DNA of 64,000 nucleotides from Candidatus Cloacimonadales bacterium (GTDB lineage: Bacteria; Cloacimonadota; Cloacimonadia; Cloacimonadales; JAFGVF01), in contig OY782781.1 of assembly GCA_963678315.1 (NCBI GenBank), forward strand, positions 2,176,001 to 2,240,000, read 5' to 3'. Position numbers and translations under genes: made by a program. The stretch's first letter is position 1; each line of letters starts with the position of its first letter. The notes beneath the pieces were generated by a model, which saw only the letters and a program-made list of their open reading frames with translations, made no database searches and was not told the origin of the DNA. Below, piece by piece: positions 197 through 29,932 of this stretch.

Positions 197-622
197 ATGA
201 GAATAGATATACATACAGTTTTAAGAGTCTTAAACCTACCTGAAGATGAAAAGATAGCACAACTTTTAGAAGAACACTCTGAGAGTGCTGTAGGCTGGTT
301 TAGAAAAGTAGCTGAATCCTCAGTACTTGAATCTCTTACAGACTATAAGATGTCTTATTCTTTTTTCTTATTATCTCAAGTATTAGACTTTCTAAACCTT
401 AAAACTCTTGGTTCTGGTATTATTAAGACTACGGGTATTGATGCACAAGTAACTGAACTTCTTACTGGTAGTGAGATTAGAGCTTATAAAAAGGATTTAG
501 AGATTCGTTCTTTAGAGACTATTTATGATTATCTTACTCCTCTTGGTATTAAGCGTTTAGATGAACTTAAGTTTGGAAGCAAAGCAGTTAAACACCATAG
601 AACTAGGGCAACTGTAATATGA
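197..622 (+). CDS. Phage hypothetical protein (possible head-tail connector)
   Basis: 141-aa ORF with AAGGA RBS. First of four coupled ORFs ending in a portal gene; its 3' end is duplicated at ~16045-16160. Confidence 0.5.
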   Translation: MRIDIHTVLRVLNLPEDEKIAQLLEEHSESAVGWFRKVAESSVLESLTDYKMSYSFFLLSQVLDFLNLKTLGSGIIKTTGIDAQVTELLTGSEIRAYKKDLEIRSLETIYDYLTPLGIKRLDELKFGSKAVKHHRTRATVI

Positions 623-1083
623 GTGTAAATAGTGAAATATTAAAAGCTATTTATACTTCAATAGAGAGTAAACTACACCTCATAGGTAGTGTTATTGAGG
701 GCAAAGCTAGAAGACTTATACTAGAGAAAGGTATTAAAGATAAAGGTGATTTCTATCAAAACACAAGCTATGCTGTAAGCTTTAACAGCTCTTCTATTGA
801 CCTGGTTGTAGGATCTAATGTACCTCATGAGCAATATGTTCTAGGTGGTAAAGTTCCCTCCTGGACTCCAATCCAGCCACTTAAAGATTGGGTTGCTCGT
901 AAAGGCTTAGACTGGGTTGATAAGAAGACAGGTGAACAACTTACTATTGAGAACATTGCCTATATGATTAGAGGAAAGATAAAACGTGAGGGTGTGCCTG
1001 AACGTAATGTCTTTGCAGAGGTTATCCAAAACCAAGAGAAGTGGATTTTTAGTCAGTTAGATTCTATTGAGGTAATACTATGA
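619..1083 (+). CDS. Phage virion morphogenesis / HK97 gp10-like tail-completion protein
   Basis: VVGSNVPHEQYVLGG and KIKREGVPERNVF resemble gp10-like/neck proteins; ATGA overlap with both neighbours. Confidence 0.55.
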   Translation: MSVNSEILKAIYTSIESKLHLIGSVIEGKARRLILEKGIKDKGDFYQNTSYAVSFNSSSIDLVVGSNVPHEQYVLGGKVPSWTPIQPLKDWVARKGLDWVDKKTGEQLTIENIAYMIRGKIKREGVPERNVFAEVIQNQEKWIFSQLDSIEVIL

Positions 1084-1454
1084 CCTTTCAAGATAAACGA
1101 ATCGCTATTGTTAAAGCATTAATTGACACTGGTATTTCCTCTCGTAACATCGCTTTTTCTAAAGACACTATTCCTAGTTCTTTTCCATCTGCTATTGTAG
1201 TATTAGAAGGAGAAAAAGGCTGTAATAAATCTTCTAAGCGATACTTAGCATTTGAATATGACATCCAAGTATTTCTAATTACTGATGTTAACAATTCAGA
1301 TGATCCAGATATAGATATATTAAAACTATCAGATAGATTTAAATCTAATTACAGAACAGCTGTTGGGAGTGATATACCTAAGATTGAATTCTACCCAGCA
1401 AGAGCTGATGCAGGGCGTAAAGTACGCATAGCCAAGGTTTATACGGTGATTTAG
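1080..1454 (+). CDS. Phage protein, possible tail terminator
   Basis: 124 aa; follows the gp10-like gene; FPSAIVV..YDIQVFLI pattern typical of tail-terminator-like folds (inference). Confidence 0.45.
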   Translation: MTFQDKRIAIVKALIDTGISSRNIAFSKDTIPSSFPSAIVVLEGEKGCNKSSKRYLAFEYDIQVFLITDVNNSDDPDIDILKLSDRFKSNYRTAVGSDIPKIEFYPARADAGRKVRIAKVYTVI

Positions 1455-2165
1455 ATGAGAGTTCAAAAGATTGGTGGATTCAATATTGGGATAGTTAGCA
1501 GTGAAGATTTGCTTAATAAGAACTACTCGCCTGAGCCTGTTAACTTAAATTCTTATAAGTGGGAAGGTAGTAAAAGGCTATCGAAATCTTATGAGAAAAA
1601 GAGAATGATAACAGCTCCCTACTCTATGGGTAACTTGCTTAAACTCATTGAAAAAGATGAGTACCATTCAGGTTGTATTGCTTCTAAGGTAAACACCTGT
1701 CTGATGCAGATAGAAGTTAAGAATAGTAGTTTAAAGAGTTGGTTTAGTGATGCTCAATATCCAGGTAATGATGACATACTTTTAACTCTTGGAGAACTGC
1801 TTAAATACTATCTAGCATGTGGTAATGGCTTTATCATCAAGATGAGAAGTGCTTCAGGAGATTGGGTTGGCTTAGAAAGACTACTACCAACAGAAGTACA
1901 ACTAATAGAAAACTATGATGAGTTTGGATTCTTCAAGCCTGATTTCCTTCATGTTAAAAATGGAACGAAGAGATTCTTTCCTGGAGATGATGTAATTCAC
2001 TTTAAGAACCCAACTCATAGATCAAATGCTTGGGGTGTCTCTTGCCTACCTGTGGCTGTTAATATTGAGATTCTAGAACAGATTAAAAGTGTGTGTTTAA
2101 AACTTATCATTTTGTTGAATCTCTTTAGCAATGCCTTTTTTTTTCAATTCATCATAACTACCTAA
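1455..2165 (+). pseudogene. Phage portal protein, 3'-truncated (portal-like sequence ends ~2088)
   Basis: YLACGNGFIIKMR, LERLLPTEV and DVIHFKNPTHRSNAWGVS are portal motifs. Only ~210 aa remain; the last ~25 codons are antisense read-through into the convergent sigma gene. Confidence 0.75.
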
Positions 2166-3056
2166 TCTTTCGTTATAGGAACCGTTGAAGCTATCTAAGT
2201 CTTTTTGCTTAATTTCTGTCTTTAGTTTGCTTTTATCAATTTGTACAACTCCTTGAGGCCAGATAGGAAATTCGACTACTTGTATATTGTTTGAACTTGT
2301 TATAATGAATTCTATAAAAAAAAAGCTGTGCTTATTACCTTGATTAATAAAAACAACTAAAAGACAATAGCTTTGTTCATCAATATACTGTAATTTACAT
2401 GACTTCATTTCTTTAAATTTAATCTTTGAGAAGTCATTAATTTTAGCATTTTTTAAATATCGTTTCATAGAAGATAAATCATTATTATTAAGTGAGTTCT
2501 TTAGTTTATGTATGAAGTTATTAATCTTAAGTGTAAGGTTAGTATAGGGTAATAACTTAAAAAATAGGGTCTTATTATCAATCAGATGATAAAGCTCAAT
2601 TTCATTAGTATACTTATATATTATTTCTCTGACTTTACTCTCTTTAAGTTTAAATCTCTGGGCAATTTTAGCTTTTGATTCTTTCTCTATATAGAAATAC
2701 TCTAATATTCTTCTTTCTCTATCTTTATGTGCAAGAAAAAGATATTTACTAAAATCAATCTCAAAATCTATAATTTCACTACTATTTTCTTGATTTTTAT
2801 TTGAAAAAAAATCAAGTTTATCTTCTTCTACATGAACGGCTAATAATCTTTTTTGCTTAGTAAAATAATCATTACATAAGTTAGTAACTACCTTTCTAAT
2901 CCATCCTTTAGGATTAGCAATCTCTATTACTCTTGAAATCTTTACAAGCTTAACCAGACAATCACTTGCAAAATCCTCAGCTAATTCATAATCATTAACT
3001 ATTTTATAAGCAGTTACCTTTGCAGATTCAAAATACTCTTTAAAACTATTAACCAT
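2097..3056 (-). CDS. ECF-type sigma-70 factor with a long C-terminal extension
   Basis: Region 2-like AEDFASDCLVK…PKGWIRKVVTNLCNDYF; region 4 HTH-like RERRILEYFYIEKESKAKIAQRFKLKESKVREIIYK; GAGG RBS. Confidence 0.75.
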   Translation of the reverse strand: MVNSFKEYFESAKVTAYKIVNDYELAEDFASDCLVKLVKISRVIEIANPKGWIRKVVTNLCNDYFTKQKRLLAVHVEEDKLDFFSNKNQENSSEIIDFEIDFSKYLFLAHKDRERRILEYFYIEKESKAKIAQRFKLKESKVREIIYKYTNEIELYHLIDNKTLFFKLLPYTNLTLKINNFIHKLKNSLNNNDLSSMKRYLKNAKINDFSKIKFKEMKSCKLQYIDEQSYCLLVVFINQGNKHSFFFIEFIITSSNNIQVVEFPIWPQGVVQIDKSKLKTEIKQKDLDSFNGSYNERLGSYDELKKKGIAKEIQQNDKF

Positions 3057-3148
3057 CGCTAGCCTCTCGTAAAATTTTATGTATCAATCAAATAGAGCAA
3101 ACTAATAAAAATATTGTTTTTTTTAGAGTCTATGTAACAGGAGGAGAT

Positions 3149-3346
3149 ATGAAAAAAATAATCTCATTACTGTTAGTGTTAAGTTTTGTCGTGTTGGTAT
3201 TTGCCAGTCAAGTTAATTATGAACTATATCCAGAAATTACATGGATAGAGGTCGGATCTCAAAATTACGAAGTTATTTATGATGACCCAAATGATGATTA
3301 TATTGCTATAGTTATTAATGGAGAAATATTTATAGTTAAAAAGTAA
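3149..3346 (+). CDS. Small secreted protein (65 aa)
   Basis: AGGAGGAG RBS and signal peptide MKKIISLLLVLSFVVLVFA; divergent from the sigma factor. Confidence 0.7.
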   Translation: MKKIISLLLVLSFVVLVFASQVNYELYPEITWIEVGSQNYEVIYDDPNDDYIAIVINGEIFIVKK

Positions 3347-3598
3347 ATGTTGCAGTTATAGTAATCCTTGTATATTAAGGATTTAGTTAGTTACAACAAA
3401 ACTAGGAGCTAAACAAAAAACAAAAAAAGGAGTAATAAAAAAATGCACAAAAGGAATATTTTAATATTGTTTAGTAGTCTGTTTTATCTTCTATCATAGG
3501 GCATTGTTATCAATTAGATGGTATAATGCAATAATAACTTTACAAATTTAGAAGATCTTAAATTACTTTAATAAATAATGAAGAATAAGGAGTATAGT

Positions 3599-4333
3599 AT
3601 GAAATTAAGATTAATATTATTGATGTTATTTTATGTTTTAGGTACTAATCTATTTTGCGATAATAATGAATCAATACTCAAAAGTGGTAACAAAAAAAAA
3701 CAGATTGCAGGTTATATTCAATTATTGTCTCAAATACGGTTTGGTAATGACCTAAAACTTGGAGATCGAGTAGTTTATTGTTATAAAGCAGAAGGTAATA
3801 ATGATAGTGTTCACTCTTTAGAAATAATGTCAAAAGATGATAACAACATGGTTATATTGGAAGAGTTTGATGGCAATAGCGTCTATGTTAGAATGAACAG
3901 CAACACTAAAGAGGTCTTAGCTATTTGGGGAACTGATGAATTTGGTCAAGATCAAGTTTTAAATGTTTTATCAAAAAATGAGTTAACCATCTTCGAAGAT
4001 GAAATTAGTGAAATGTTTAATGTTGCTGATTCCATTTTGCAAATTAATGAAAGTTTTTATTTTGATGCTAACACTGAAATCAAACAAGTCGATCAAAACT
4101 CTAGAGTAAATACAATTGATGTAAAAATGGATATTACCAAAACAAAGATTCCTGAAGAGATATCCCAAGAAGTAATAAAGGAAAACAGGTTAGTTTTATC
4201 AAGTGATGTTCCTAAAATGCTACCTTTAATCCCTGTTGCTCTAAGTAATTATAACAAAAGGGGTCTTCTCAAACAATACGATTATGGATTTGTTGAGAAT
4301 AACATATTGGAATTGAGGAGCTATCGAAAATGA
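3599..4333 (+). CDS. Secreted hypothetical protein
   Basis: AAGGAG RBS precedes ATG 3599 (ORF track starts at 3578); signal peptide MKLRLILLMLFYVLGTNLFC. Confidence 0.65.
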   Translation: MKLRLILLMLFYVLGTNLFCDNNESILKSGNKKKQIAGYIQLLSQIRFGNDLKLGDRVVYCYKAEGNNDSVHSLEIMSKDDNNMVILEEFDGNSVYVRMNSNTKEVLAIWGTDEFGQDQVLNVLSKNELTIFEDEISEMFNVADSILQINESFYFDANTEIKQVDQNSRVNTIDVKMDITKTKIPEEISQEVIKENRLVLSSDVPKMLPLIPVALSNYNKRGLLKQYDYGFVENNILELRSYRK

Positions 4334-5412
4334 AAAGCTTTAAAATTATAATAATCGCCTTGTTTATTATTATCATTATATTACTTGCTGGATGTGATTT
4401 TAAATTATATAATGACCCCGAAGTTGATGAGGGTGCTTGGAGAGAGGATTTCATTGCTATAATGAACATTGATGGTTCTGATGTTGAACTTATACAATCA
4501 CAACATCAGAATTACTTTGCAGGTGCAAGAAGACCTTATTTTGTGAAAGACTTAGCTGGAAACAGTGAAGAAGAGGTTATTCTCTTAGACTTTCAAGATA
4601 AAATAGATATCATGTCGCTTGATGGAGAAAATAGAAGAACTATTATTGATTCATTGGGTGGTGTACAATATTTTAATCAAGATAGAACAAAAATGATTCT
4701 TCTTCATAATGGTAAGGTTTATCTATCAAGTGTAGATGGATCTAAAGTTGAAAAAATTTCACTTAGTTCTATTACTCGTGGTTATAATCCATCATTTGCT
4801 AAAGATGAAGAGACAATTTTATACAATTATATTGTGAGAAATGATACAACTACTACTGAGTTAGGTTTAGTTGAATATAATATTTATACAAACAACTCTC
4901 AAGTTATTTTGAACACAGTAGTACAAGAAGATCTTCTATTTAATCCAGCATATCAATATCCGAGTAGAATCAATGAAAATGTAATTGTTTATCGGTACGA
5001 TTATAACAAGTTTGAAAATGAGGAAGTGATCAGTAGTCATGATTTTAGAGAACATGACTTGGTGACAAATGAAATAGATATTTTGATTGAGGGGTATATA
5101 AATCTCAAGTACTCAAATTTGAATGAGTTTGTAACATTTGAGCGTGGAAATGATAGGAATATATATTTGTTAAACATAGAGACACAATCAACTATATCTT
5201 TTGAAACAAGTCTTTATGATATTGAAGATGCAAGTTTCAGCTCTGATGATCGTTATCTGATGCTAAATGAAACTATCTATGATACACATTTAGATTCTAC
5301 TTTTATTTTAGAAGACAGTGACTTTTTTGGTAAATATCATAATATTTCTAAAACTAGCATGAATTCAGATAACACAAAAATTGTGGGAATTGTAGGTTTC
5401 TTACATTACTAA
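4330..5412 (+). CDS. Lipoprotein with TolB-like beta-propeller
   Basis: Lipobox LLAGC; IMNIDGSD, LSSVDGS, NPSFAKD and ASFSSDD propeller-type motifs. Confidence 0.7.
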   Translation: MKSFKIIIIALFIIIIILLAGCDFKLYNDPEVDEGAWREDFIAIMNIDGSDVELIQSQHQNYFAGARRPYFVKDLAGNSEEEVILLDFQDKIDIMSLDGENRRTIIDSLGGVQYFNQDRTKMILLHNGKVYLSSVDGSKVEKISLSSITRGYNPSFAKDEETILYNYIVRNDTTTTELGLVEYNIYTNNSQVILNTVVQEDLLFNPAYQYPSRINENVIVYRYDYNKFENEEVISSHDFREHDLVTNEIDILIEGYINLKYSNLNEFVTFERGNDRNIYLLNIETQSTISFETSLYDIEDASFSSDDRYLMLNETIYDTHLDSTFILEDSDFFGKYHNISKTSMNSDNTKIVGIVGFLHY

Positions 5413-5425
5413 ACAGGAGGGGAAA

Positions 5426-8400
5426 ATGAAAAATAAGATTTTAATTATAATAATAATACTAACATTTATATATAATATTGCAGCTTTTACTACTGAATAT
5501 CCAGTAGTTGATCCTTTAAGTGCAGAATGGCAAGAAGCAGGATTGGATGGGGATGTACCTGTTCATCAAGAAGATGTTACTATATCTATATCAGAAATAG
5601 AAAATTTCGATTTGAGTGGTATATTAAATGTAGGGCAGGCAGACGAGATATACCCTTCTCCAACTAACATTGTTAGACTGTTGTTACCTCCAGGAGAATT
5701 CAATCTTACGCAACCAATTGAACTTCAATCTTACATAATTCTAAAAGGTAATCATCAATTTAGGAGAGATGAGGATAGAGCCCAAAGAACTACTTTAAAT
5801 TTTAATCTTGGGGATAATAAAAATTGCATTAATGTTGGTAGTAATACAGAAACTATGGAGAAAGTTGGTATTGAAGATTTATGGATTGTTAGGCAAGACA
5901 ATAGTGACTCTGCAAATACTAATACTGGTAATAATATACATTTTTCACATACTAATAATTGTTGGGTAATAGGTGTTGAAAGCACAACTCCCGTTACAAG
6001 TCACATAAGAATGATAGAATCAAATCATAATTATGTCGCCGGATGTTACTTTGATAATGCTCATAGACATGGAGATGGAGGACAAGGTTACGGAGCTTTT
6101 ATCGAGTATAATAGTCACCATATTCTTGTCGAAAACAATATCTTTAGAAGACTACGACATTCTATGGTAGTTCAGAATGGTGCACATCACAATGTTTTTG
6201 GATATAATACTGTAAAAAAATCCGAAAATACTTCAATTGAAGATTGGGGTCCAGATGGAGTAGCACCATGGATGGAGAACTTTGCTAAATGGATTATGAG
6301 CAGTATTGTACCTGGAGACTATACCGGTGATTTGATATGCCACGGAGAATCTTCTCAACATTATGGAGGACCTTATGAGGGACCTTATGAAAACTTATTT
6401 GAAGGTAATGTCTGTAATTCAATACAAATAGATTCATTCTGGGGCCAGAACAAAAAACATAACACTTTTTTTAGAAACAAATCCAGTAAATATGGTATTG
6501 CTATTTATCCAAAATTGAAGGGATCTTTTGATATACAAGATGAATCAGAAAAACAAACAGAGCAGATAACTATTAACAATTATTGTAAATCGAGACAACA
6601 TTGGACAGACGCTGGACCTCTGTATATGGCAGGAGGAGGGGCTACTGCTCTAGGGGCTACACTTTTATCTTTCATTCCAGAGGTTGGTCCCATCTTAGCG
6701 TTTGATTTCATTCTTTATGGCCTTAAAACAACAATAGATTATGCAAATTTTGGATATAAGTTAACTAATGGAAGGGGATTTGATGTAAAGCCTATTGAAA
6801 AAAATAATATAGTTAAAAGAATGAATTTTTGGGGTAACTATTATACAAGAACATGGACAGATGATGATTATGGTTCAGATTCTAAAGCTTGGGATGATGA
6901 ATCATATTATCGAACAGATATACCTGACTTTTGGGCTACAAGTTTAGAAAGTAGTTGGCCTTATCATCCTAAAAATTCCGATTCAATACCTTCAGAATTT
7001 AGATACAATGCCTTTGATAAAAAGACAGTATCAAGATATGATGATCCGAGCTATCTTCAAACATATTATATTACTGAAGATACTGAAATCCCATATGATT
7101 TGGTTGATGACTTAAGTTCACAAACTGGCAATCTTCATGTCCCAGAGAATACATTGTTAATAATAGACTCGAGCTCTTCAACTGATGGAATAACTCTAAG
7201 TTTTGAACGAAATAGTTTAATGGGAATAAGTGGGGCTGTTATGGTTAGAGGAACAAGTGATAAGCCTGTTACTTTTACTAATCTTCAACCAACTACTAAT
7301 GATAATGATAGATGGTATGGAATATATATAGGAAAAGAAGCTAGAGCAACATTTGATGATTCTTCATTTGAATGGGCAGTTTTTGAAAATGCAAAAGGTT
7401 CTAGCGGTTCCTCTGGTGGAGCTTTTAATTTTGATAATAATTTTTCAAATTTAGACTACACTGTAACTTTCGATAATTGTATCTTTAGGAATAATTTATC
7501 TCCAAGTGTTCCTGAATCAACAAATATTAATAATGGTGATGGTGGTGCTATCTTTATTAAAAACCGTAATGACGATGATATGATACATACTGTCTTTAAT
7601 AATTGTAGTTTCCTTAATAATAATTCAGCATTTGATGGTGGTGCTATATACGCTGACGGTGCTCCTCCAATAATTATGAATTGCTATTTTGAAGACAATC
7701 AAGCTAGAAGAGGTGGTGCTATATCTATCCTTGGGAATGATGATAACAGGGACATTGTAATAGCTGGATCTGTTTTTAATAACAACAGTGCTAATGATAA
7801 CTATGGTGCTGTATATATAGAACAGAGCAAAACCCATGATTCTTCAAGTTATAATACTTTCATCCAAAATAATACATTTGTAAATAATACTGCACTTTCG
7901 GGTTTTGGTGGCGGAATATCAATGAAAAATGTAAGCAAATCTGTTTATTTTATTAACAATATCTTTAGAGATAATTATGCTACTAATAGTTCTGCAGTCT
8001 ATGGTGTTGGACATTCAATATTATATTTATTACATGATAATTTAGTTAATAATCATGAGGTAGTTTTTGAATCAAATTCGATAGAAGGGTTTAATTTAAT
8101 AGATAATCCTTCTAATGACTATATCTCATATGCAAGTTATAATGATAATTATGTATATTCTTCTATGAATCTAAACTACACTGCCAACAATAATATTTAC
8201 AGTAATCCTTTAATATACGATAATATTAAAATTGATACTTTTTCACCATGCTTTAATAGTGGTTTCTTACCTTCTGAGAATGAAGATGCAACTGTTTTTT
8301 GTTCATTACCACATGATATTGCTGGAATGAATAGAATAGCTGGAGGATCAATTGATATCGGAGCTTTTGAGTTTAATGAAGTTTATATTGATATAGATAC

Positions 8401-9877: not shown

Positions 9878-9954
9878 TGTCATATGATCTCATGAGCTAT
9901 AGAGTCCTGTTATAAAGGGTTTTATAAGGAATGATCAAAATGATAAAGATACTT

Positions 9955-9985
9955 AAAGGCACAGCATTAGTTGTGCCTTTTATAT
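9955..9985 (+). terminator. Rho-independent terminator of cargo operon 1
   Basis: AAAGGCACAGC-ATTA-GTTGTGCCTTT followed by a T-rich tail. Confidence 0.7.
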
Positions 9986-10249
9986 TATAATACTATATTG
10001 GTGATTGTCCCATATCTATTTTTTCTTCAACAGCGATGTATTATCCTTGGAGTTTTATTGGCTCTTGTTTAAGCCTACGAGAAGCATACTGTCTCTAATG
10101 ATGATCAATAAAGCATTTATTGAACTTATTAATTATAAACAATAACTTTAATTACTTATATTACAGGGCTATAATACTTTAACTATTCATATAAAAACTG
10201 TTCCTACACTTAAGTTGAAGTTGAACTTGAACCGTTTTATTTGTTGAAA

Positions 10250-10730
10250 TGTCATTCCCTATAACATTCATCCTAAAGGATTTTACAACTCTGGTGGTGA
10301 AACTACAGAGTAGTTAAAAGTATTAAAAGCTACTCTTATGCTCCATAATTTAACTATCATTTCAGTGTCTGAAGGAACTATCAAATTAGTCAATAAAGCA
10401 GACTCTAACACAAATCTAATTGTGGTTGAAAAGGCTGATGTGATAGAGTTTAAACGTAAAAGAATAAATCGTACAGTACCTGATACTTCCATCCTAGATT
10501 GTTTAATTGGTGATTTGAAACTCTTGAAAAACATTTTATCAGATTCTTACATTGAACTTTTAAGTCAGATTTGGGAGCTAACATCCACTATCGACAATCT
10601 TGAGAAGTACACTATCTCACTGTTTGATAGAATACAAATTGAAGATAAACAATACAAGGTTACTGAGATTCAACGAGATACAAAAGAAAATGAATACAAA
10701 TTAAAAGCATGGGAGTTACCTAATGTTTAA
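10250..10730 (+). pseudogene. 3' remnant of a phage tail gene
   Basis: ORF 10338-10730 has no RBS. The frame continues upstream (PYNIHPKGFYNSGGETTE*LKVLKATLM) across a TAG at 10311. C-terminus DRIQIEDKQYKVTEIQRD…YKLKAW resembles tail proteins. Confidence 0.55.
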
Positions 10731-11172
10731 GTTTGATGGTTTTAGAATCATCTCAATAACTGATGGTATAGTAGATGGTTATGTAGTTCCAGATGCAACA
10801 GTTGAGTATCAGCCTGAAATCAAATACAGGATAGAAAAGAAGAATGCTTTTGATCCAACTATCATTATTAAAAGAGATCCTTATCATGATGACCAGATTG
10901 AATGCGAAGCTATACTATTACCAACTGAATACAACACTCTATGTAGTCATTTAACAACTGCTGATCAACTATTTATAGAGTTTGATACAGCAAGCCAAAC
11001 TTTACAATTTCCAGTTACAGTCGATAAACTACCAAAACTTGAAGATGAAACCAGATCATTTAAAAGCCAAGTTAAATTCACACTTAGTTCAATCTATACC
11101 TCTCTTGAATTCATAGACTTTGATAATGTCTTTGGCTATGGAAATGACTGGGGTGAGAACTGGGGATTTTAG
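10723..11172 (+). CDS. Phage tail-region protein
   Basis: 149 aa, overlaps the previous ORF, ends GYGNDWGENWGF; lies within the tail-like cluster. Confidence 0.5.
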   Translation: MFKFDGFRIISITDGIVDGYVVPDATVEYQPEIKYRIEKKNAFDPTIIIKRDPYHDDQIECEAILLPTEYNTLCSHLTTADQLFIEFDTASQTLQFPVTVDKLPKLEDETRSFKSQVKFTLSSIYTSLEFIDFDNVFGYGNDWGENWGF

Positions 11173-11181
11173 GAGAAAAAT

Positions 11182-12406: not shown

Positions 12407-12407
12407 T

Positions 12408-13636: not shown

Positions 13637-13637
13637 C

Positions 13638-13676: not shown

Positions 13677-13681
13677 ATAAT

Positions 13682-16827: not shown

Positions 16828-16893
16828 TCAAAATTAAGCAACATCTATCCTTTCTAACTATTCGAGGTTAAATATTATGTAAATCAAATTTTA

Positions 16894-18472: not shown

Positions 18473-18488
18473 AAATCAAATTTTAATC

Positions 18489-18518
18489 TTGACAGTTACA
18501 ATAATATGTCTTTAGCTT
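18489..18518 (+). promoter_or_regulatory. Putative sigma-70 promoter of cargo operon 2
   Basis: TTGACA at 18489 with TAGCTT 18 bp downstream; lies immediately beyond the IS target duplication. Confidence 0.4.
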
Positions 18519-18588
18519 GTTTCAGTAATGGAAGTATCAAATTAAAGTACCCTCTAATTGTAAAACTTTCATTTTAAAGGTAGTTATT

Positions 18589-19620: not shown

Positions 19621-19628
19621 GAGTATTT

Positions 19629-22600: not shown

Positions 22601-25600
22601 AGAAAATAACCCAATCTATGTGACATCAATAAAAAATGATCTTGTAAATGGTGATACTAACAGTGATTTAGACAACTCCACTCCAGCTAAAGGAGATTGG
22701 GGTTATATCAAATTTTCTTCAACTTCTCAATCTAGCATAGCAAATTGTTTCTTAAGTTATGGAGGATATAATAGTTATAACTTGTATGTTGATAATGCAG
22801 ATTTATCTATTGATAACATTTCAATTGAAAATGCACAAAATATTGGTCTCTTGACAAACTGTAGTATTACGATATCTAATAGTAATTTTAAAAACTGTAC
22901 TATTGGAATAAAAACGGATCAATCTAATAATGAATTCAAATATCCAATCATTAGTAACTGTACTTTTGAAGAAAACACCTATCCTGTTGTTCAATATAAT
23001 GGTTCTTTCCCTGTTTACTACAATAATACATTTACTAACAATAGTTATCAAGGCATTGGGGTTCAAGGCACAATATCCAATTCAGAACTAACTGCTGAAT
23101 GTACATGGTCTATGGAACATGGACTGCCATATATTTTATCAGACCATCTAACTATAAATGATAATATAACACTATCAATACCTGCTGGGTTTATTTTGAA
23201 AGCTACTATAAATTCTTCTGGCTATGGATATTATAGAAGATGCATTAATGTTAATGGTAATTTATTGGTAAATGGAACAGAAAACAATCCTGTATATTTC
23301 ACGTCACTTAATGATGATAGCATTGGAGGTGACACTAATAGCGATTCTGATAATTCGATTCCCAATAAGGGGGACTGGGGATATATCAAATTTAATTCTT
23401 CAGCACAATCTAGTTTAGAACATTGTTATTTTAGGTTTGGAGGAAGAAAAAGACGATATAATAATTATTCAAGTAGTTATGACCAAAATTACTTATTATG
23501 GATCGATAATGCTAATATTGAGCTTAATAATGTAGTAGTTCAATCTGCTTATGATATAGGCATATCGACTAATAGTAATACTCAGTTAAACAACACTACT
23601 CTTAAACACTGTAATAAAGCAATTACAACCAACCAACTTAATAATGAGTTTAAATATCCTATAATTAGCAACTGCTCCTTTGAAGAAAACACCTATCCTA
23701 TAATTCAATACAACGGTTCTTTTCCTATCTATTCAAATAATACTTTCACAAATAATAGTTATCAAGGCATCGGTGTTCAAGGTACAATATCCAATTCAGA
23801 GCTAACTGCTGAGTGTACATGGTCGTTGGAACATGGGTTACCGTATATTTTAACAGGAAATTTAACTATAAATGATAATATTAACATGATGTTTTCTCCT
23901 GGGTTAGTTTTAAAAGGTCAGAATCAGTATAATATAACAGTTAATGGAAATTTAACAGCTAATGGACTAGAAAATAACCCAATCTATGTGACATCAATAA
24001 AAAATGATCTTGTAAATGGTGATACTAACAGTGATTTAGACAACTCCACTCCAGCTAAAGGAGATTGGGGTTATATCAAATTTTCTTCAACTTCTCAATC
24101 TAGCATAGCAAATTGTTTCTTAAGTTATGGAGGATATAATAGTTATAACTTGTATGTTGATAATGCAGATTTATCTATTGATAACATTTCAATTGAAAAT
24201 GCACAAAATATTGGTCTCTTGACAAACTGTAGTATTACGATATCTAATAGTAATTTTAAAAACTGTACTATTGGAATAAAAACGGATCAATCTAATAATG
24301 AATTCAAATATCCAATCATTAGTAACTGTACTTTTGAAGAAAACACCTATCCTGTTGTTCAATATAATGGTTCTTTCCCTGTTTACTACAATAATACATT
24401 TACTAACAATAGTTATCAAGGCATTGGGGTTCAAGGCACAATATCCAATTCAGAACTAACTGCTGAATGTACATGGTCTATGGAACATGGACTGCCATAT
24501 ATTTTATCAGACCATCTAACTATAAATGATAATATAACACTATCAATACCTGCTGGGTTTATTTTGAAAGCTACTATAAATTCTTCTGGCTATGGATATT
24601 ATAGAAGATGCATTAATGTTAATGGTAATTTATTGGTAAATGGAACAGAAAACAATCCTGTATATTTCACGTCACTTAATGATGATAGCATTGGAGGTGA
24701 CACTAATAGCGATTCTGATAATTCGATTCCCAATAAGGGGGACTGGGGATATATCAAATTTAATTCTTCAGCACAATCTAGTTTAGAACATTGTTATTTT
24801 AGGTTTGGAGGAAGAAAAAGACGATATAATAATTATTCAAGTAGTTATGACCAAAATTACTTATTATGGATCGATAATGCTAATATTGAGCTTAATAATG
24901 TAGTAGTTCAATCTGCTTATGATACAGGAATCTATATTTATGGAGATGAAATATGCAATATTACAAATTCAACATTTCAAGAATGTAATACAGGAGTATA
25001 TATAAATGACTGTTCTGCATTAATAACTGATTGTTTGTTTACTTTCTGTAACACTGGTATATACTTTAATAAAGACACAATGTCTATAGTCTCAAATAGT
25101 AACTTTTCATTCTGTTCTGATCAAGCAATATACTTAAATGGAAATGGAGAAAATCCAACTCCATTAGTTACTGACTGTAATTTTATAAATAATCAAAACT
25201 TTAATGTAAAACTGAACTCTTATCAGGATCCTACTAGAACTCTGAATTTTGAAGATAACTGGTGGGGCACCAACAATGCAAGCTTAATTGAAGAGAAAAT
25301 CTATGATTTTAGTGATAATGAAAGTTGTGCAAGTGTTGATTACTCTCCTTATTTAACCCAAATTAACCAGGATATCTCTAATATTGCAGATTTCAATGGC
25401 AGTGGAAGAGTTGACGGGTTTGATTTAGCAATTCTTGGAAATACATTTGGAACTTCTTCTTCAGACGAAAATTATAATCTTGCAGTAGATTTAAATACAA
25501 GTGGAAGAATTGATGGATTTGATTTAGCCATCTTTGCAACTCACTTTGGTGAAATAGGACCTAATGATAGAGCATTGGATGATATTGAGAATAGTAACAC

Positions 25601-26312
25601 TAATTTAGTATCAAAATTGGAATTATCACATGATTATTCAAACTTAGAGATAGGAGATATCATTGAAATTCCGATCACTCTTAGAAATGATTATTCATGC
25701 TTAGGTATAGCATTTGATTTAGACTTTAATCCTGATATCTTTGAAGTAATTGATTTCTATTTTATGGATACAATGATATCTAACCAAAATATTAACTTCT
25801 ATAGTATAAATAATCAAGTTGGTAAAGTAATTATTGGTACCTCTACAAAATATCTTAATATTGATTACCTAAGAGGTTTAACCAATATAGCAACAGTTTC
25901 GTTTAAAGTTATTAGTCAATTTAGTAATGAAACAATTTTAGTTGATAATCAAAACTTGATAGAATATGGTGGGGCAACTTTTATAGAATTAGATGCGAAT
26001 GAGGTTGATCTTACTTCAGATGTTAATGAAGTTAGTTTTGTTGAAAGTCTTTCAAATTATCCGAATCCTTTTAACCCTACTACAACGATTTCATTTACAC
26101 TACCGAAATCAGAGGAAGTAGAAATCACTATATATAACATTAAAGGTCAGAGAGTAAAGGAACTTATAAAGGGACAGTTGAAAGCTGGTATAAATAACGT
26201 TATATGGGATGGGAAAAATGAAAACGGTCTGATGTCATCAAGTGGAGTATATTTATATAGAATAAAAACAGATAGTAATAATATTGTTAGAAAAATGTCA
26301 TTAATGAAATAG
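19629..26312 (+). CDS. Giant secreted beta-helix repeat protein with dockerin-like, cohesin-like and FlgD-Ig domains
   Basis: Signal peptide; FTSxxDDxxGGDTNxD…GDWGYIKF repeats; paired ADFNGSGRVDGFDLAIL / VDLNTSGRIDGFDLAIF; FDLDFNPDIFEV cohesin-like region; NYPNPFNP C-terminus. Confidence 0.8.
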   Translation: MKKVIFSLFLVSIFSFMFGYTEVSGNISEDTTWNDAVYSVTNNIHVQNNATLTIAAGTIIKFHYRKNIQVSGNLVLQSTSTSKIIFTSIKDDTYGGDTNNDGSSSTPNDADWGYFKFTTADEINFHDVIVKYGGYNSYCFYVQDSVVEFNSCHIEDCHQVGILANCNITVNNTTIKGCSIGIKTDQSNNEFKYPIISNCTFEENTYPVVQYNGSFPVYYNNTFTNNSYQGIGVQGTISNSELTAECTWSMEHGLPYILSDHLTINDNITLSIPAGFILKATINSSGYGYYRRCINVNGNLLVNGTENNPVYFTSLNDDSIGGDTNSDSDNSIPNKGDWGYIKFNSSAQSSLEHCYFRFGGRKRRYNNYSSSYDQNYLLWIDNANIELNNVVVQSAYDIGISTNSNTQLNNTTLKHCNKAITTNQLNNEFKYPIISNCSFEENTYPIIQYNGSFPIYSNNTFTNNSYQGIGVQGTISNSELTAECTWSLEHGLPYILTGNLTINDNINMMFSPGLVLKGQNQYNITVNGNLTANGLENNPIYVTSIKNDLVNGDTNSDLDNSTPAKGDWGYIKFSSTSQSSIANCFLSYGGYNSYNLYVDNADLSIDNISIENAQNIGLLTNCSITISNSNFKNCTIGIKTDQSNNEFKYPIISNCTFEENTYPVVQYNGSFPVYYNNTFTNNSYQGIGVQGTISNSELTAECTWSMEHGLPYILSDHLTINDNITLSIPAGFILKATINSSGYGYYRRCINVNGNLLVNGTENNPVYFTSLNDDSIGGDTNSDSDNSIPNKGDWGYIKFNSSAQSSLEHCYFRFGGRKRRYNNYSSSYDQNYLLWIDNANIELNNVVVQSAYDIGISTNSNTQLNNTTLKHCNKAITTNQLNNEFKYPIISNCSFEENTYPIIQYNGSFPIYSNNTFTNNSYQGIGVQGTISNSELTAECTWSLEHGLPYILTGNLTINDNINMMFSPGLVLKGQNQYNITVNGNLTANGLENNPIYVTSIKNDLVNGDTNSDLDNSTPAKGDWGYIKFSSTSQSSIANCFLSYGGYNSYNLYVDNADLSIDNISIENAQNIGLLTNCSITISNSNFKNCTIGIKTDQSNNEFKYPIISNCTFEENTYPVVQYNGSFPVYYNNTFTNNSYQGIGVQGTISNSELTAECTWSMEHGLPYILSDHLTINDNITLSIPAGFILKATINSSGYGYYRRCINVNGNLLVNGTENNPVYFTSLNDDSIGGDTNSDSDNSIPNKGDWGYIKFNSSAQSSLEHCYFRFGGRKRRYNNYSSSYDQNYLLWIDNANIELNNVVVQSAYDIGISTNSNTQLNNTTLKHCNKAITTNQLNNEFKYPIISNCSFEENTYPIIQYNGSFPIYSNNTFTNNSYQGIGVQGTISNSELTAECTWSLEHGLPYILTGNLTINDNINMMFSPGLVLKGQNQYNITVNGNLTANGLENNPIYVTSIKNDLVNGDTNSDLDNSTPAKGDWGYIKFSSTSQSSIANCFLSYGGYNSYNLYVDNADLSIDNISIENAQNIGLLTNCSITISNSNFKNCTIGIKTDQSNNEFKYPIISNCTFEENTYPVVQYNGSFPVYYNNTFTNNSYQGIGVQGTISNSELTAECTWSMEHGLPYILSDHLTINDNITLSIPAGFILKATINSSGYGYYRRCINVNGNLLVNGTENNPVYFTSLNDDSIGGDTNSDSDNSIPNKGDWGYIKFNSSAQSSLEHCYFRFGGRKRRYNNYSSSYDQNYLLWIDNANIELNNVVVQSAYDTGIYIYGDEICNITNSTFQECNTGVYINDCSALITDCLFTFCNTGIYFNKDTMSIVSNSNFSFCSDQAIYLNGNGENPTPLVTDCNFINNQNFNVKLNSYQDPTRTLNFEDNWWGTNNASLIEEKIYDFSDNESCASVDYSPYLTQINQDISNIADFNGSGRVDGFDLAILGNTFGTSSSDENYNLAVDLNTSGRIDGFDLAIFATHFGEIGPNDRALDDIENSNTNLVSKLELSHDYSNLEIGDIIEIPITLRNDYSCLGIAFDLDFNPDIFEVIDFYFMDTMISNQNINFYSINNQVGKVIIGTSTKYLNIDYLRGLTNIATVSFKVISQFSNETILVDNQNLIEYGGATFIELDANEVDLTSDVNEVSFVESLSNYPNPFNPTTTISFTLPKSEEVEITIYNIKGQRVKELIKGQLKAGINNVIWDGKNENGLMSSSGVYLYRIKTDSNNIVRKMSLMK
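20165..24924 (+). repeat. Intragenic tandem repeat, 1368-bp unit x ~3.5
   Basis: TATTGGAATAAAAACGGATCAATC recurs at 20165, 21533, 22901 and 24269; units look identical in spot checks. Confidence 0.95.
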
Positions 26313-26322
26313 GAGTAGAACA

Positions 26323-29067
26323 ATGAAGAAATTCTTAATAATATTAATTGTTTTATTACATCTCTCTATTATTAACGCGGAGGATGTCATTTTTGAAACA
26401 GACTTTTCTGATAGTGAAGGTTATTCCGTCGACTATAGATATGGGAACTATAATTATAGTTGGGGAAGAGTATTATCTGGCGGTATTGTAAATAATAGAG
26501 AAAACTATCCTCCAGATATTAACTACGAAGATGGAAATGATATTTTATATTCAGCAAGTCAAAAATATAATAATGATATCAATCCAATTCTTGAATATGA
26601 TGATGTTTCTAGGAACATCATTAGATTAGGTGAAAAAGAATATTTAGGAGGAAGTACTTATAAACATTCAATTCCCTTACTTGGGTATGAAGAGTATAAA
26701 TTAAGGTTTGATTATTGTATTCCTTCAATTGGTTATAGAGATAGATTGATAGTAGCTATTGATACAACAGCTAGTGAATTTAGCTTAAATTTCAATGACA
26801 ATTCTCAAATTTCGGAAAGTGATTTTTTAGAAAGCCTGATTATTCTAGATGAATATGAGGATGCTACTAATGGATTTTTCAGTGGTTTTAGATGGGAGTC
26901 AATAGACATTGACTTAACTGAATACAAAGGTTCAACTATATCTCTAATTTTCTATTTCAAAGCCGAGTTTAGAGTTAATGACTTATTTTTCGGAAGTCAA
27001 ATAGGTCCATTTATTGATAATGTATCTGTAACTGGTAATGGTAAATTGCTTGAATCCAATAAGCATGAAATTTCATTTGGTAATTTTTACAATGGAGAGA
27101 TATCAGAAGAAGAGCATTTTTGGTTAAGAAATAACACTTCTGATTATGGAACAATTACTGAAGTTCAAATACCTGATGGTTTTGAAGTTAAATTTAGTTT
27201 TTTGAATGAATGGAATGAACAACTAATAAACTCTTTCATTAATCATAATTCTGTTGAATACACTTTCGATGTACGATTCAATTCTAATTTTATAGGTAAT
27301 GAAAGTGGCATTATAGAAGGTGATTTAATTATACAAACAGATTTAGAAAACTCATTGCCTGTTATAATTCACTTATCAGCTCAATGTGGAGAGCCTCCAA
27401 CTGGTTTACTTTCAATAATAGGACCAATCGAAAATCCAGATTTGAATCATGAATTTGAAGTTGACATCATTGTCAATACTGGGAATATTTCAAACCTATT
27501 TGGAGTAGCTTGTGACCTCATATATAATCCATTAGACATAATTCCAGTAAGTATTTCACATGGTGATGGTTTAACCGAGAACGGTCAGAACCAGGTATCA
27601 TTCCAAGACTACATTGACTATGATGAAAACACAATAATAATTGGAAGTACTTGTTTGCAAGGTAGCTATGTTTTACCACCACAAAACAGTAATGAACATA
27701 TTGCAACCATACGATTTAGGACACTCAGTTATGGACAGACAAATTTAGTTTTAAATAATACAGGTCTGATAAATCAATTTGGTGAAAGTTCATTAGGTTG
27801 CGATACCGAAGATCTTGCAATAAATGTTACACCCTCTGAATTGATTGCAAGCCTATCATTTAATAATAATCAAATAAATACTTCTATAAACAATGACTTT
27901 GAAGTAGATTTAATGATTGATAATGTAGAGAATTTATTTGCGTTTGCTTGCGATGTAGAATATGATTCTGATAAAATTTCAATAAATGAAATAATCTATA
28001 ATGATGCTTTAGGGGAAACATCACAATTTTTAATGAGTAATAATAATGATGGTTTAGTCACTATTGGAATAACAAGGTTAAACAATAGTTCTCAAGGTGT
28101 AGATATTAACGATATATCTTCAATATTTACTATTAATGCAACTGCCAATTCACCAGGTGATTGTGACTTACTTGTAACAAATATTGGATTATTAGCTCCA
28201 GATGCTGTAACTTCTTATAATTATGCAAATAATGCTACATGCAATGTATCAATATCAAATTTTGAGCTTATTCTAAATATTCCTGAAACATTTAGTGTAG
28301 ATGAGGATGAATCATTGAATATAAATATGCAACCATATTTCTCATATAATGCAGAGTATAATGAGTTTTTTATTTTTGAATTTGAAGGAAATGATAATAT
28401 AGAGATAGATTATATTGATTGGATTGTGACAATAGAACCTTATGAGAATTGGAATGGTACACAAAGTGTAGAAATGATAATCAAAGAAAACAACAATTCG
28501 GTTATAACCAGTACTAATTTTGAGATTGAAGTTAATTCTATAAACGATTCACCACAAATCGCTTTAGATTTACCAGATATTTCAGTTAATCAAGGTCAAT
28601 TGGAGTTTGATATAAATCTTGATGAGATTTTTATTGATATCGATCATAATGATGAGTTATACTATTCCGTTGAAGGTTACACAAACATATTTGCATTTGT
28701 AAATCAAAGCATGCTATTTTTAAGATGTTCTCCATATTGGTCTGGAACCGAAACGATTACAATTAATGCGAGTGATGGTATAGAGACAGTTTCTTCTTCA
28801 TTCATCGTAACAGTTGAGCCAATTGTTATTAGTCTAGAAGTTCCAGAGGTATCCATATTTGTGGAAAATAATCTAATACATATAGAATGGCAAGCAGTTA
28901 ATGGGGCAAGTTCTTATAAAGTTTTTTCCACAACTAATCCTATGGGTTTAGATTTTAATGATGTTACAAGTGAAGGGACATTTCAATTATACAGTAACAC
29001 CATTAGATGGCAATGTCAAGAAAACACTAACTATAAATTCTATAAAGTTAAAGCATCTACAGATTAA
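26323..29067 (+). CDS. Secreted protein with two cohesin-like domains, cadherin/Ig-like repeats and a C-terminal beta-sandwich
   Basis: FEVDIIVN…NLFGVACDLIYNP and FEVDLMIDNVENLFAFACDVEYDS cohesin patterns; DED…NWNGT…VNSINDSP cadherin-like repeats; IEWQAVNGASSYKVF…KFYKVKA C-terminus. Confidence 0.72.
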   Translation: MKKFLIILIVLLHLSIINAEDVIFETDFSDSEGYSVDYRYGNYNYSWGRVLSGGIVNNRENYPPDINYEDGNDILYSASQKYNNDINPILEYDDVSRNIIRLGEKEYLGGSTYKHSIPLLGYEEYKLRFDYCIPSIGYRDRLIVAIDTTASEFSLNFNDNSQISESDFLESLIILDEYEDATNGFFSGFRWESIDIDLTEYKGSTISLIFYFKAEFRVNDLFFGSQIGPFIDNVSVTGNGKLLESNKHEISFGNFYNGEISEEEHFWLRNNTSDYGTITEVQIPDGFEVKFSFLNEWNEQLINSFINHNSVEYTFDVRFNSNFIGNESGIIEGDLIIQTDLENSLPVIIHLSAQCGEPPTGLLSIIGPIENPDLNHEFEVDIIVNTGNISNLFGVACDLIYNPLDIIPVSISHGDGLTENGQNQVSFQDYIDYDENTIIIGSTCLQGSYVLPPQNSNEHIATIRFRTLSYGQTNLVLNNTGLINQFGESSLGCDTEDLAINVTPSELIASLSFNNNQINTSINNDFEVDLMIDNVENLFAFACDVEYDSDKISINEIIYNDALGETSQFLMSNNNDGLVTIGITRLNNSSQGVDINDISSIFTINATANSPGDCDLLVTNIGLLAPDAVTSYNYANNATCNVSISNFELILNIPETFSVDEDESLNINMQPYFSYNAEYNEFFIFEFEGNDNIEIDYIDWIVTIEPYENWNGTQSVEMIIKENNNSVITSTNFEIEVNSINDSPQIALDLPDISVNQGQLEFDINLDEIFIDIDHNDELYYSVEGYTNIFAFVNQSMLFLRCSPYWSGTETITINASDGIETVSSSFIVTVEPIVISLEVPEVSIFVENNLIHIEWQAVNGASSYKVFSTTNPMGLDFNDVTSEGTFQLYSNTIRWQCQENTNYKFYKVKASTD

Positions 29068-29079
29068 TTAATTATTAAT

Positions 29080-29112
29080 GAGATATATCTCTTTTCTTTG
29101 AGGTATATCTCT
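29080..29112. terminator. Hairpin between convergent genes
   Basis: GAGATATATCTC-TTTTCTTT-GAGGTATATCTC. Confidence 0.5.
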
Positions 29113-29113
29113 C

Positions 29114-29482
29114 TTACCAAGTTCTTACCTTATAAGTAATATCATTATATTCAAATTGTTCTAAATCAATCTTAGCTTTTAAAGCTACTTTTTCAAACAA
29201 CTGACCTAGTTCATCACGTTCACCTGTTTCAATAAAAGTATAGCCTGTCATTTGATCTAATGCATTAAACTCAATAACTGCCTTTTCAATTAGAACTATC
29301 TTAATCTCAGCTTTAGCTCTTAAGCCAGCTTTTGCTAAATCTTCAAGTAAAGTATCCATAATTTGAACAGCACAGTCACAGTTAATTTTACAGTATTGTG
29401 TTAAACCATCTTTATAATAACCTCTCCACACTTCAAATGGGTAGCCTGCTTTTAACTGTTCTAATCTTTCTTTATAAGTCAT
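29114..29482 (-). CDS. Conserved hypothetical protein (122 aa), island right-end marker, copy 2
   Basis: AAGGAG RBS before ATG 29482; paralogue of 13682-14050, including its upstream region. Confidence 0.8.
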   Translation of the reverse strand: MTYKERLEQLKAGYPFEVWRGYYKDGLTQYCKINCDCAVQIMDTLLEDLAKAGLRAKAEIKIVLIEKAVIEFNALDQMTGYTFIETGERDELGQLFEKVALKAKIDLEQFEYNDITYKVRTW

Positions 29483-29619
29483 CGTTAACTCCTTTTTCTT
29501 CATTAATTTATGTCTCTACAATATAACTTTAATGAAAGAAGTCAAGTCAAATAGACATTATTTTACACAGTTAAATAGTTATTATTTAATGAGTTAGTGC
29601 TATATTAAATTAATTACAT

Positions 29620-29932
29620 GGAAATAGTGAAGTCACTTTTTCCACCTAACAGAAGAGGAAATAAAGTTGTCAAAAATTATCCAGCAATATCTTATGTATG
29701 TGTTTATATATTAGTACTTTATAAAATGGAAATAATGGTGACATCAAAAGGACAGCTATTTTTCCTTAATATAGATGCTTTAGAGGAATGTGGAAATATC
29801 TTTGTCAATTTAGATTTTTTCACTTATATCATCATAAGTGTTTAATGTGTGGTGCTTTAAGCATCATAATAGTCTAATATTATCTTTAAAAATGGAAGTT
29901 ACGCTGTCGCTACAAGGAAAAAACCTATGTCA
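29620..29932. repeat. Second array of TGACA-N6-TTTCC-like sites
   Basis: Sites at 29628(+), 29657(-), 29750(+), 29792(-), 29894(-) and 29916(-), plus extra degenerate sites at 29620(-) and 29728(-). Confidence 0.8.

Follow-up and report, generated by a model that had tools for sequence, protein, structure and literature searches.

The window analysed here is a stretch of 64,000 nt in the 2.99 Mb genome of a Candidatus Cloacimonadales bacterium (contig OY782781.1, positions 2,176,001 to 2,240,000). Its left part carries two islands in which phage genes enclose operons of large secreted proteins, whose Pfam matches are to the sorting domains of the type IX secretion system (T9SS) and to beta-helix domains. 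A preliminary description, made from the letters of the window, had read them as small self-contained islands of an undescribed kind. We compared the genome with itself and with related sequences, and both islands are most probably (we would put it at roughly 0.85) parts of Mu-like transposable prophages of one family, with head and tail genes replaced by T9SS operons. The observations that carry this reading are the anatomy of the element, its ends, the duplication of its target, the deletion and substitution of genes relative to intact relatives, a junction shared with sequences elsewhere, and recombination between copies. Island 1 together with its upstream part is called element A, island 2 is element B, and a third genomic copy, at genome 2,419,512-2,454,347, is copy C.

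Anatomy of element A

Element A occupies genome 2157457-2190500 (33,044 bp), with its right 14.5 kb forming window 1-14500 (plus strand). Island 1 is 44% of this prophage and B is a truncated remnant, and thus neither is a self-contained island. The remaining left 18.5 kb of A lies upstream of the window, in the directly adjoining 20 kb (L001). The genes there are, in order, a leftward CI/S24 repressor, a 672-aa transposase (L001:3813-5831), a MuB-like AAA protein, DUF3164, TerS, TerL, a MuF-like protein and a block on the minus strand. The transposase matches PF09299 (Mu-transpos_C, E = 5e-18) and phrog_310 (E = 3.4e-85), the product of the adjoining MuB-like gene matches phrog_296 (E = 1e-26), and the divergent CI-type repressor at the left end matches PF00717 and PF07022. 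The repressor, MuA and MuB genes are all intact. In the minus-strand block, two unknown genes accompany those of an Mrr-type nuclease, a T9SS-tailed S8 peptidase of 1540 aa and a T9SS protein of 322 aa. A CI repressor together with MuA and MuB, terminase and MuF constitutes the gene set of a Mu-like transposable phage.

In the comparison of the genome with itself, homology between island 1 and copy C extends from 17.3 kb upstream of the window to window position 2087. Within this region three conserved genes of the virion module, encoding proteins of 141, 154 and 124 aa, lie at 197-1454 on the plus strand. They precede the portal gene, are connector-like by position only, and match nothing in Pfam or NCBIfam. 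The portal gene (1455-2165, plus strand), recognized as such by Pfam, is truncated; homology to the 393-aa portal of copy C covers its residues 1-212 and stops at ~2087.

From that point 8.25 kb of cargo (2088-10337) replaces the C-terminus of the portal, the protease-capsid, the 182-aa and 107-aa genes, two Dam methylases, the tape measure and most of a 464-aa distal-tail gene. The cargo contains an extracytoplasmic function (ECF)-type sigma factor with a C-terminal extension (2097-3056, minus strand; Pfam sigma-70/ECF-type) and a small secreted open reading frame (ORF) of 64 aa (3150-3344). These are followed by an 18-codon remnant of another T9SS gene, a signal-peptide start and then a stop (~3483-3539), a 251-aa gene (3578-4333), a 360-aa gene (4330-5412) and the gene of a 1483-aa beta-helix T9SS protein (5426-9877). 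Distal tail genes are retained beyond it (10338-13636, plus strand), comprising a 130-aa C-terminal piece of the 464-aa protein and then proteins of 149, 274, 80, 190 (tail-fibre-like) and 224 aa. The element closes with a 122-aa orphan gene (13682-14050, minus strand) and the right end.

The sigma factor belongs to a sigma-70/ECF-type family of ~320 aa with a C-terminal extension of ~170 aa. Four members, at window 2097-3056 and at genome 2452182-2453135, 2957795-2958766 and 821790-822479, are 24.9-35% identical to one another, and two of them lie inside Mu-like elements beside T9SS genes.

Transposition ends and insertion site

The right end of A (attR-like, 14187-14500) contains six sites of the form GGAAA-N5-6-YTGTCA. 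Two (14187-14202 and 14310-14325) are in the TGACAG..TTTCC orientation, and four (14216-14231, 14352-14367, 14455-14470 and 14477-14493) in the GGAAA..TGTCA orientation, giving two inverted pairs and two adjacent direct sites at the extreme end. When the right ends of A, B and C are aligned, all six keep their position and orientation, and the spacers are less conserved. The terminus ...TGTCACTTTATA ends at 14500, and window 14477-14500 reads GGAAAAAACGCCTGTCACTTTATA. The left end of A (L001 ~1457) reads TATAAAGTGACACCCAACTTTTCC, with the terminus TATAAAGTGACA..., so that the termini form an inverted terminal repeat with a GTATC flank on each side.

On the right this target-site duplication lies at 14501-14505, followed by the first six codons of a split VOC/glyoxalase gene (to 14518, minus strand); the remainder of the gene lies to the left of the left end. 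Removal of the 33,044 bp and one GTATC in silico restores a 122-aa VOC ORF. Uninterrupted orthologues are present in three other genomes and match the healed ORF at 74% in G106 and 71% in G107 (residues 1-122) and at 71% in G108 (residues 1-119). The gene set, the ends and the 5-bp duplication place A in a known kind of element, and not in an undescribed one.

Searched on both strands with a permissive form of the motif (GGAAA/G-N4-7-TGT/GCA/G), the genome gives 98 matches, which form clusters of at least three within 250 bp at only three places: the left end of A (three sites), its right end at 14187-14493 (six) and the right end of B at 29657-29932 (four). Clusters are thus confined to Mu-like ends. 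The fixed-gap motif by itself occurs 3 times in the window, where 2.92 occurrences are expected, and shows no enrichment, so the signal lies in the clustering and not in single sites. In the viral contig L019, an array of GGAAA...GTCA sites with two adjacent terminal sites and the terminus ...GGTGTCACTTTACA comes directly after the last tail-fibre gene, in a contig that has no 122-aa gene there. This argues that the array is the right transposition end of the phage family and is not private to the orphan gene. Independently, Logan contigs of another sequencing run (X2) break exactly at base 14500.

From its sequence, the six-site array is probably a Mu-type right transposition end with putative transposase-binding sites, which the transposase of the element would bind. 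The earlier suggestion was that a helper phage recognizes the retained end, and a transposition or packaging machinery would indeed act on this sequence. Three further candidates were rejected: a sigma-54-type promoter for the array (no GG/GC motifs), a CRISPR-like array (no repeat-spacer regularity) and an analogue of the invertible G segment (no recombinase gene).

Intact relatives and the replaced morphogenesis genes

With the protease-capsid fusion of copy C as query, IMG/VR yielded 135 relatives, and 80 loci were kept. The 141, 154, 124, portal and capsid genes stand in that order in all 80, and a tape measure is present in each of the 38 loci that are informative, having at least 6.5 kb after the capsid gene. 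A check for an intact parent phage had been proposed, and these loci provide intact relatives, with MuA and MuB found upstream in A itself. The intact order (for example in L015) is 141, 154, 124, portal, protease-capsid, 182, 107, Dam, Dam, tape measure, 464, 149, 274, 80 and 190.

Compared with this order, capsid and tape measure are absent from both islands, and neither A nor B has a complete virion module. The observation in the preliminary description that core phage genes are missing holds for the rest of the portal, the capsid and the tape measure, but island 1 does keep its distal tail genes. The left breakpoints differ as had been described, falling after residue 212 of the portal in A and after residue 64 of the 124-aa gene in B (16806). 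Both the breakpoints and the cargo are unrelated, and the replacements are therefore independent.

Copy C (34.8 kb, and 264 kb from the islands) has the only capsid gene of this phage family in the genome. It keeps the portal, the capsid, the 182-aa and 107-aa genes and one Dam, and the remaining genes have given way to two T9SS genes and a sigma-like gene. Across the genomic copies we count no fewer than six separate replacements of the morphogenesis region (A-type, B, C, G104, G106-b and G119). Five of the six replacements contain T9SS proteins, and that in G119 consists of glycosyl-transferase/GH130 genes.

The G119 element (L011/L012, G119:C1:82001-122000) comes from another family of the order and has GH130/GT1 genes instead of the tail module. 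Its MuF-endolysin gap holds an epimerase, a 997-aa caspase-STAND protein, Pepco, a methyltransferase and an ARMT1-like protein, and to its right, at a distance of ~1.8 kb, a glyoxalase gene stands intact. Copy C is bordered by Mu-like debris (genome 2419142-2419516 and 2456478-2457733); on the left it adjoins the C-terminal half of a different repressor gene, and a further, complete repressor and a MuA fragment follow its right end. A distant second Mu-like prophage, E, is apparently complete (genome 1520500-1551500; L004, L005). It encodes a repressor, a 925-aa MuA, MuB, terminase, a portal-MuF fusion, adaptor, Neck1, protease, capsid, endolysin, Dam and a 969-aa tape measure. Part of its structural block is inverted, and two of its proteins (152 and 243 aa) share 45% and 42% identity with the 149- and 274-aa proteins of island 1, respectively.

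Element B and the divergence of the copies

Element B (16023-29939) is the right-end remnant of a sibling element, of which the left ~19 kb have been lost. Its left remnant (16023-16809, plus strand) keeps only the final 45 aa of the 141-aa gene, the 154-aa gene (16157-16621) in full and the 124-aa gene as far as residue 64. The cargo (18589-29067, plus strand) is a three-gene operon for a 343-aa T9SS protein, a 2227-aa beta-helix/dockerin T9SS protein and a 914-aa protein, two of the three carrying a T9SS tail. The 122-aa orphan gene recurs at 29114-29482 (minus strand). The right end (29627-29939) has motif sites at 29627-29643, 29657-29672, 29750-29765, 29792-29807, 29894-29909 and 29916-29932, and its terminus TGTCAATTTATA ends at 29939.

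The left frames of the islands (508-1268 and 16046-16806) are 86.6% identical over 762 nt. Their 154-aa proteins (619-1083 and 16157-16621) differ at 9 of 154 residues (94.2% identity), the figure that had been estimated. The islands do then open with the same phage-derived genes, but the earlier label gp10-like for the 154-aa protein is unsupported by any family match. A weak BLAST match to a Neck1-type protein (E = 0.012) was found; a Pfam scan of 12 homologues gave no relevant family, a profile search of the PDB gave chance-level matches only, and the AlphaFold model is unusable (predicted local distance difference test score, pLDDT, 44.7). The right frames (13682-14503 and 29114-29942) are 73% identical over 842 nt with the six sites in alignment, and the orphan proteins are 76-77% identical, in agreement with the description of a common close to both islands.

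In every frame gene of A, B and C compared pairwise, synonymous divergence (dS) is 0.46-1.7 and the ratio of nonsynonymous to synonymous divergence (dN/dS) is 0.05-0.25. We conclude that the three are not duplicates made within this genome, and that they diverged as functional phages, their frames under purifying selection and not in neutral decay, and arrived separately.

The 122-aa gene was found in three of 232 genomes of the phylum, namely the source genome (three copies), G104 and G119. In the alignment of A, B and C, the 75 nt upstream of its start codon are conserved and promoter-like. The protein is modelled as a five-helix bundle (pLDDT 82); Foldseek found no match to the model in the PDB at E <= 0.001, and the protein has no match in Pfam, PHROGs or NCBIfam. 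A search of IMG/VR, which detects close matches only, did not find the gene with either a single sequence or an alignment. We treat it as a moron beside the right end.

Two features of B stand apart from these comparisons. An insertion sequence (IS) of the IS4 family (16892-18472, plus strand; DDE transposase at 17184-18341) lies 88 bp to the right of the 16806 break. It has three genomic copies, with transposase proteins 98.7-100% identical and IS DNA about 99% identical, and is therefore probably active. Its terminal inverted repeats are AGCATACCCCCA / TGGGGGTATGCT, and a relative 64-67% identical lies in slot 1 (see below) of the G106 element. The gene of the 2227-aa protein (19629-26312) contains four tandem units of 1368 nt (456 aa) that are 93-100% identical at the segments sampled, pointing to recent repeat expansion.

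Accessory slot 1 and recombination between copies

Between MuF and the lysozyme/141-aa genes the viral contigs have a hypervariable block of 4-6.5 kb, mostly on the minus strand, that we call slot 1. A scan of 42 slot proteins from 22 loci found mostly restriction-modification, DISARM-type and helicase-nuclease proteins. A T9SS sorting domain is present in 8 of the 42 (4 of the 22 loci), including pairs of an S8 peptidase and a small T9SS protein as in A and C.

The slot-1 blocks of A (L001:11256-19586; genome 2167256-2175586) and C (genome 2429672-2438660) show mosaic patches, with an extra 1.67 kb in C at 2432350-2434019. They are 95-99% identical, against 80-86% for the phage core of the same two elements. 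This directly attests recent exchange between co-resident elements through flanking homology, in line with the recombinational exchange proposed earlier.

Places coding for T9SS tails are 3.1-fold enriched in the three elements, which hold 9 of the 105 in 2.7% of the genome (binomial p = 0.002). Since two slot-1 pairs are homologous, the nine places do not represent nine independent events.

Spread of the cargo-bearing form

The 360-aa cargo gene led to G106, a genome of another genus in the same family. The element found there, G106-a, is colinear with window 69-10016 at 81%, and has MuA, MuB, TerL, MuF, the same truncated portal, the same sigma factor and the 251-, 360- and 1483-aa genes. 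A and G106-a depart from the intact portal of C at the same nucleotide. The locus is different: the left end of G106-a interrupts the 80-aa tail gene of a second remnant, G106-b, and the VOC gene of G106 is intact elsewhere. The portal fragment of G106-b was considered as a further instance of the junction and rejected, because its translation runs ~19 residues further and so marks a separate break.

The junction recurs in other samples. A metagenome contig of 3.5 kb (L135) contains the portal-sigma junction at 89% identity. Among Logan contigs of other sequencing runs, those of X2 and X4 match window 1904-11172 with 1 difference over 9,269 nt, and one of X5 matches window 1923-3494 at 91% with the same junction. 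An exact 37-mer beside the junction had no match in viral or metagenome contigs by exact matching, and the 360-aa gene was not found among close matches in IMG/VR. The presence of one junction in G106, L135, X2/X4 and X5 indicates that the cargo-bearing form has spread.

Beyond window ~3413-3497 the cargo of G106-b, L135 and X5 differs from that of A. The 18-codon remnant in A corresponds by homology to the beginning of a 326-aa T9SS gene that is complete in G106-b, and taken together these observations indicate that cargo has turned over downstream of the sigma gene. Around the remnant, 145 nt (3353-3497) are 93% identical to G106-b. The 251-360-1483 cassette occurs in G102 and G103 with no Mu-type gene within the 10-36 kb examined, as do the 251- and 360-aa genes in G108; the cassette is thus captured host-type DNA. 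Of the cassette, G109 retains no more than 127 aa of the 360-aa gene.

Over the segment that starts with TerL, includes the cargo and ends with the 80-aa gene, A and G106-a differ at a proportion of synonymous sites (pS) of 0.32-0.50 (dS 0.42-0.84), with no stop codons. The sigma gene was unusable for dN/dS here, its G106 counterpart being two matches in different frames with 10 stops in the alignment. Of the five host orthologues used for calibration, four are saturated (pS 0.69-0.80) and one has dS 0.61. This comparison suggests that the cargo form was transferred after the hosts had diverged.

One X2 contig joins base 14500, apparently as the right end of a related element, to 14942, inside the GNAT gene next to the element, with 6 unmatched letters between. 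A second contig (X2, X4) enters 14500-14937 from other sequence, as expected of an empty VOC site. The strain from which they derive is ~96-97% similar to the source genome, and the contigs are consistent with a different, recent insertion in a close strain.

Host DNA between the elements

The DNA between A and B (14593-15850, minus strand) is of the host, with a GNAT acetyltransferase gene (14593-15159) and six tRNA genes (15213-15850), which were the only matches of the window to Rfam. The tRNA cluster consists of a duplicated Gly(GCC)-Leu(TAA) unit (191-nt repeats, 97% identical), then Cys and a third Gly. Metagenome read depth is very high over the cluster because of its conservation.

Discussion

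The following course of events accounts best for these observations. Sibling Mu-like phages lost head and tail morphogenesis genes at points that differ in each copy, and host-type T9SS operons took their place, with an ECF-type sigma factor as well in A. The A-type substitution predates the present insertion of A, which entered the VOC gene by Mu-type transposition, and B is what remains of the right end of a sibling. The cargo-bearing form may have reached other sites and hosts by transposition with its own MuA and MuB, and by recombination with related phages through flanking homology. Packaging by a helper, as with laboratory mini-Mu, may also have occurred.

Several observations weigh against this reading. 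The termini of A, as set by the duplication, read TA...TA, in place of the 5'-TG...CA-3' of Mu. The flanks of C do not match (GCTGC and TTTGA) and B has no left end, so that the target duplication is shown for A alone. G106-a lacks the 122-aa gene and sites 3-6 of the array, and so does not itself form an intact mobile unit. Homologous recombination could by itself have moved the shared junction. The dating of the element to a time after the hosts split depends on five host genes, too few for certainty. The contigs that suggest a recent insertion are short and derive from mixed samples, and no link can be drawn between them. Between A and G106-a the truncated portal shows dN/dS of 0.094 at dS 0.84, a constraint unexpected in such a fragment. 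This is most simply accounted for by gene conversion, in which intact relatives have repeatedly overwritten the fragment as far as the homology reaches; such conversion weakens the inference of selection on the retained packaging genes and fits the recombination seen in slot 1.

Mu-like transposable prophages, their defective derivatives, morons and accessory hotspots are already known, and the variant here is a defective form that carries cargo. Among the papers listed by narrow literature searches, none dealt with transposable phages of this phylum or with natural mini-Mu-like derivatives. With Mu and its relatives (D3112, B3 and BcepMu among them) A shares the leftward CI-type repressor beside the MuA and MuB genes, the MuF-like, portal and terminase genes, the inverted ends with multiple putative transposase-site repeats, the 5-bp target duplication and the insertion into a gene. 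The mom gene of Mu is an accessory gene beside the right end, and the 122-aa gene of A stands likewise. A differs in the T9SS-bearing phylum of its host and in the hypervariable minus-strand block between MuF and the lysis/connector genes, and the copies in the window lack capsid and tape measure. In PMC3145075, Mu is described with three MuA sites at each end and a 5-bp duplication, compared with six sites at the right end of A.

Laboratory mini-Mu elements are packaged by a helper Mu. They have Mu ends around foreign cargo and need MuA and MuB acting on those ends for mobility, according to PMC3145075. A similarly keeps both ends around non-phage cargo that replaces morphogenesis genes; it differs in being natural, 33 kb long and still in possession of its own A and B genes, terminase and some tail genes, and its mobility would follow from its distribution. 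The occurrence of one junction at different loci, in different hosts and in different samples could be explained by recombination too. The pool of defective prophages in E. coli O157 Sakai, which recombine and which co-resident prophages can mobilise (PMC2669165), offers a further parallel, with related defective prophages in one genome, recombination between them and spread of cargo; those are lambdoid and carry virulence toxins, whereas here we find Mu-type elements with T9SS surface proteins and sigma factors.

A had also been proposed as a satellite or mini-element, but it falls outside the phage-inducible chromosomal island (PICI) and P4-like satellites, being 33 kb long, full-size and moved, as it would appear, by MuA and MuB and not by an integrase. 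The capsid-forming satellites (cf-PICI) keep packaging and head-related genes, have no tails of their own and borrow those of a helper. A likeness to them would arise only if A were a helper-packaged shuttle, and A lacks a capsid gene, integrase-type excision, small size and identified helper-interference genes; family scans of its proteins recognized no helper-hijacking gene.

The alternative that survives best, although we regard it as unlikely, is that these are ordinary dead prophages that decayed in place, and that the shared junction reflects common descent from one old prophage, followed by rearrangement. All the genomic copies are defective, there are IS and nested insertions, and the cargo cassette is found in host-type settings free of nearby Mu genes. 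The preliminary description had held that two copies only, a fixed cargo and neutral decay of the frames would point this way. There are three copies in the genome besides remnants, and others in G104, G119 and G106; the cargo differs between copies; and dN/dS in the frames is low throughout. Furthermore, the ends and duplication of A are perfect and its repressor and transposition genes intact, two genera, at different loci, and further samples carry the junction, the VOC site is uninterrupted in G106-G108, and the segment from TerL to the 80-aa gene is less diverged than four of five host genes. In our reading, the defective forms did not simply decay in place and are part of an active, recombining pool.

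Rather less probable is a dedicated adaptive family of cargo shuttles or satellites that lost head and tail genes by design, is packaged by a helper and moves surface-protein operons under sigma control. The recurrence of substitution, mostly with T9SS proteins, would fit such a family, as would cargo that varies past a conserved sigma gene in L135, X5 and G106-b and the enrichment of T9SS tails in the elements, but T9SS genes are the commonest large accessory genes in this genome. The sizes of A and C are close to those of intact phage (viral contigs of 30-38 kb), and both A and G106-a have kept TerL, MuF and the connector-like genes whole (dN/dS 0.05-0.22); such signals of selection can arise from recombination with intact phages. 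No helper or interference genes are known, A is unlike known satellites in its size and its own MuA and MuB, and B, C and G106-a are visibly broken, lacking the left end, the target duplication and the right terminus, respectively. Neither the 122-aa nor the 360-aa gene, moreover, was found in IMG/VR.

That the array is instead a regulatory region (operators or promoters) or a non-coding RNA of the 122-aa gene is very improbable. It does lie upstream of that gene, with the promoter-like conserved sequence by the start codon. But L019 has array and terminus without the gene, the motif is found inverted at the left end of A 33 kb away, the homology of the copies and the target duplication begin exactly at the last base of the array, and Rfam has no match there. 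A recent segmental duplication in this chromosome, to which the common orientation of the islands and their separation by 1.5 kb might point, is scarcely credible given the synonymous divergence of the copies (0.46-0.79) under low dN/dS, a copy C equally distant from A and B, and unrelated breakpoints and cargo.

Prophages of the Mu type bearing captured T9SS operons thus remain our preferred reading, and on the sequence evidence the A-type form is best described as behaving like a natural mini-Mu-like defective derivative that spreads by transposition, recombination or both. More tentatively, a Mu-like lineage without capsid and tail genes, but with its ends, MuA and MuB, terminase and connector-like genes retained, might persist as a self-transposing, helper-packaged and recombination-prone shuttle between genera of this bacterial family, carrying a sigma factor and exchangeable T9SS operons in a fixed slot past the sigma gene (~3413-3497); we consider this doubtful.

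What had seemed a new system is thereby removed, and in its place there is a Mu-like phage family in a poorly studied, T9SS-bearing lineage rich in uncultured members. For this family the ends are known exactly, and it has a candidate motif for transposase sites, an intact parent architecture and two slots for accessory genes. Its defined ends, together with MuA and MuB, could serve as a genetic tool for organisms that are now without one. It also emerges that defective derivatives of transposable phages, loaded with host-type operons for secreted proteins and a sigma factor, can persist and spread, which is of relevance to the diversification of cell-surface repertoires in these anaerobes.

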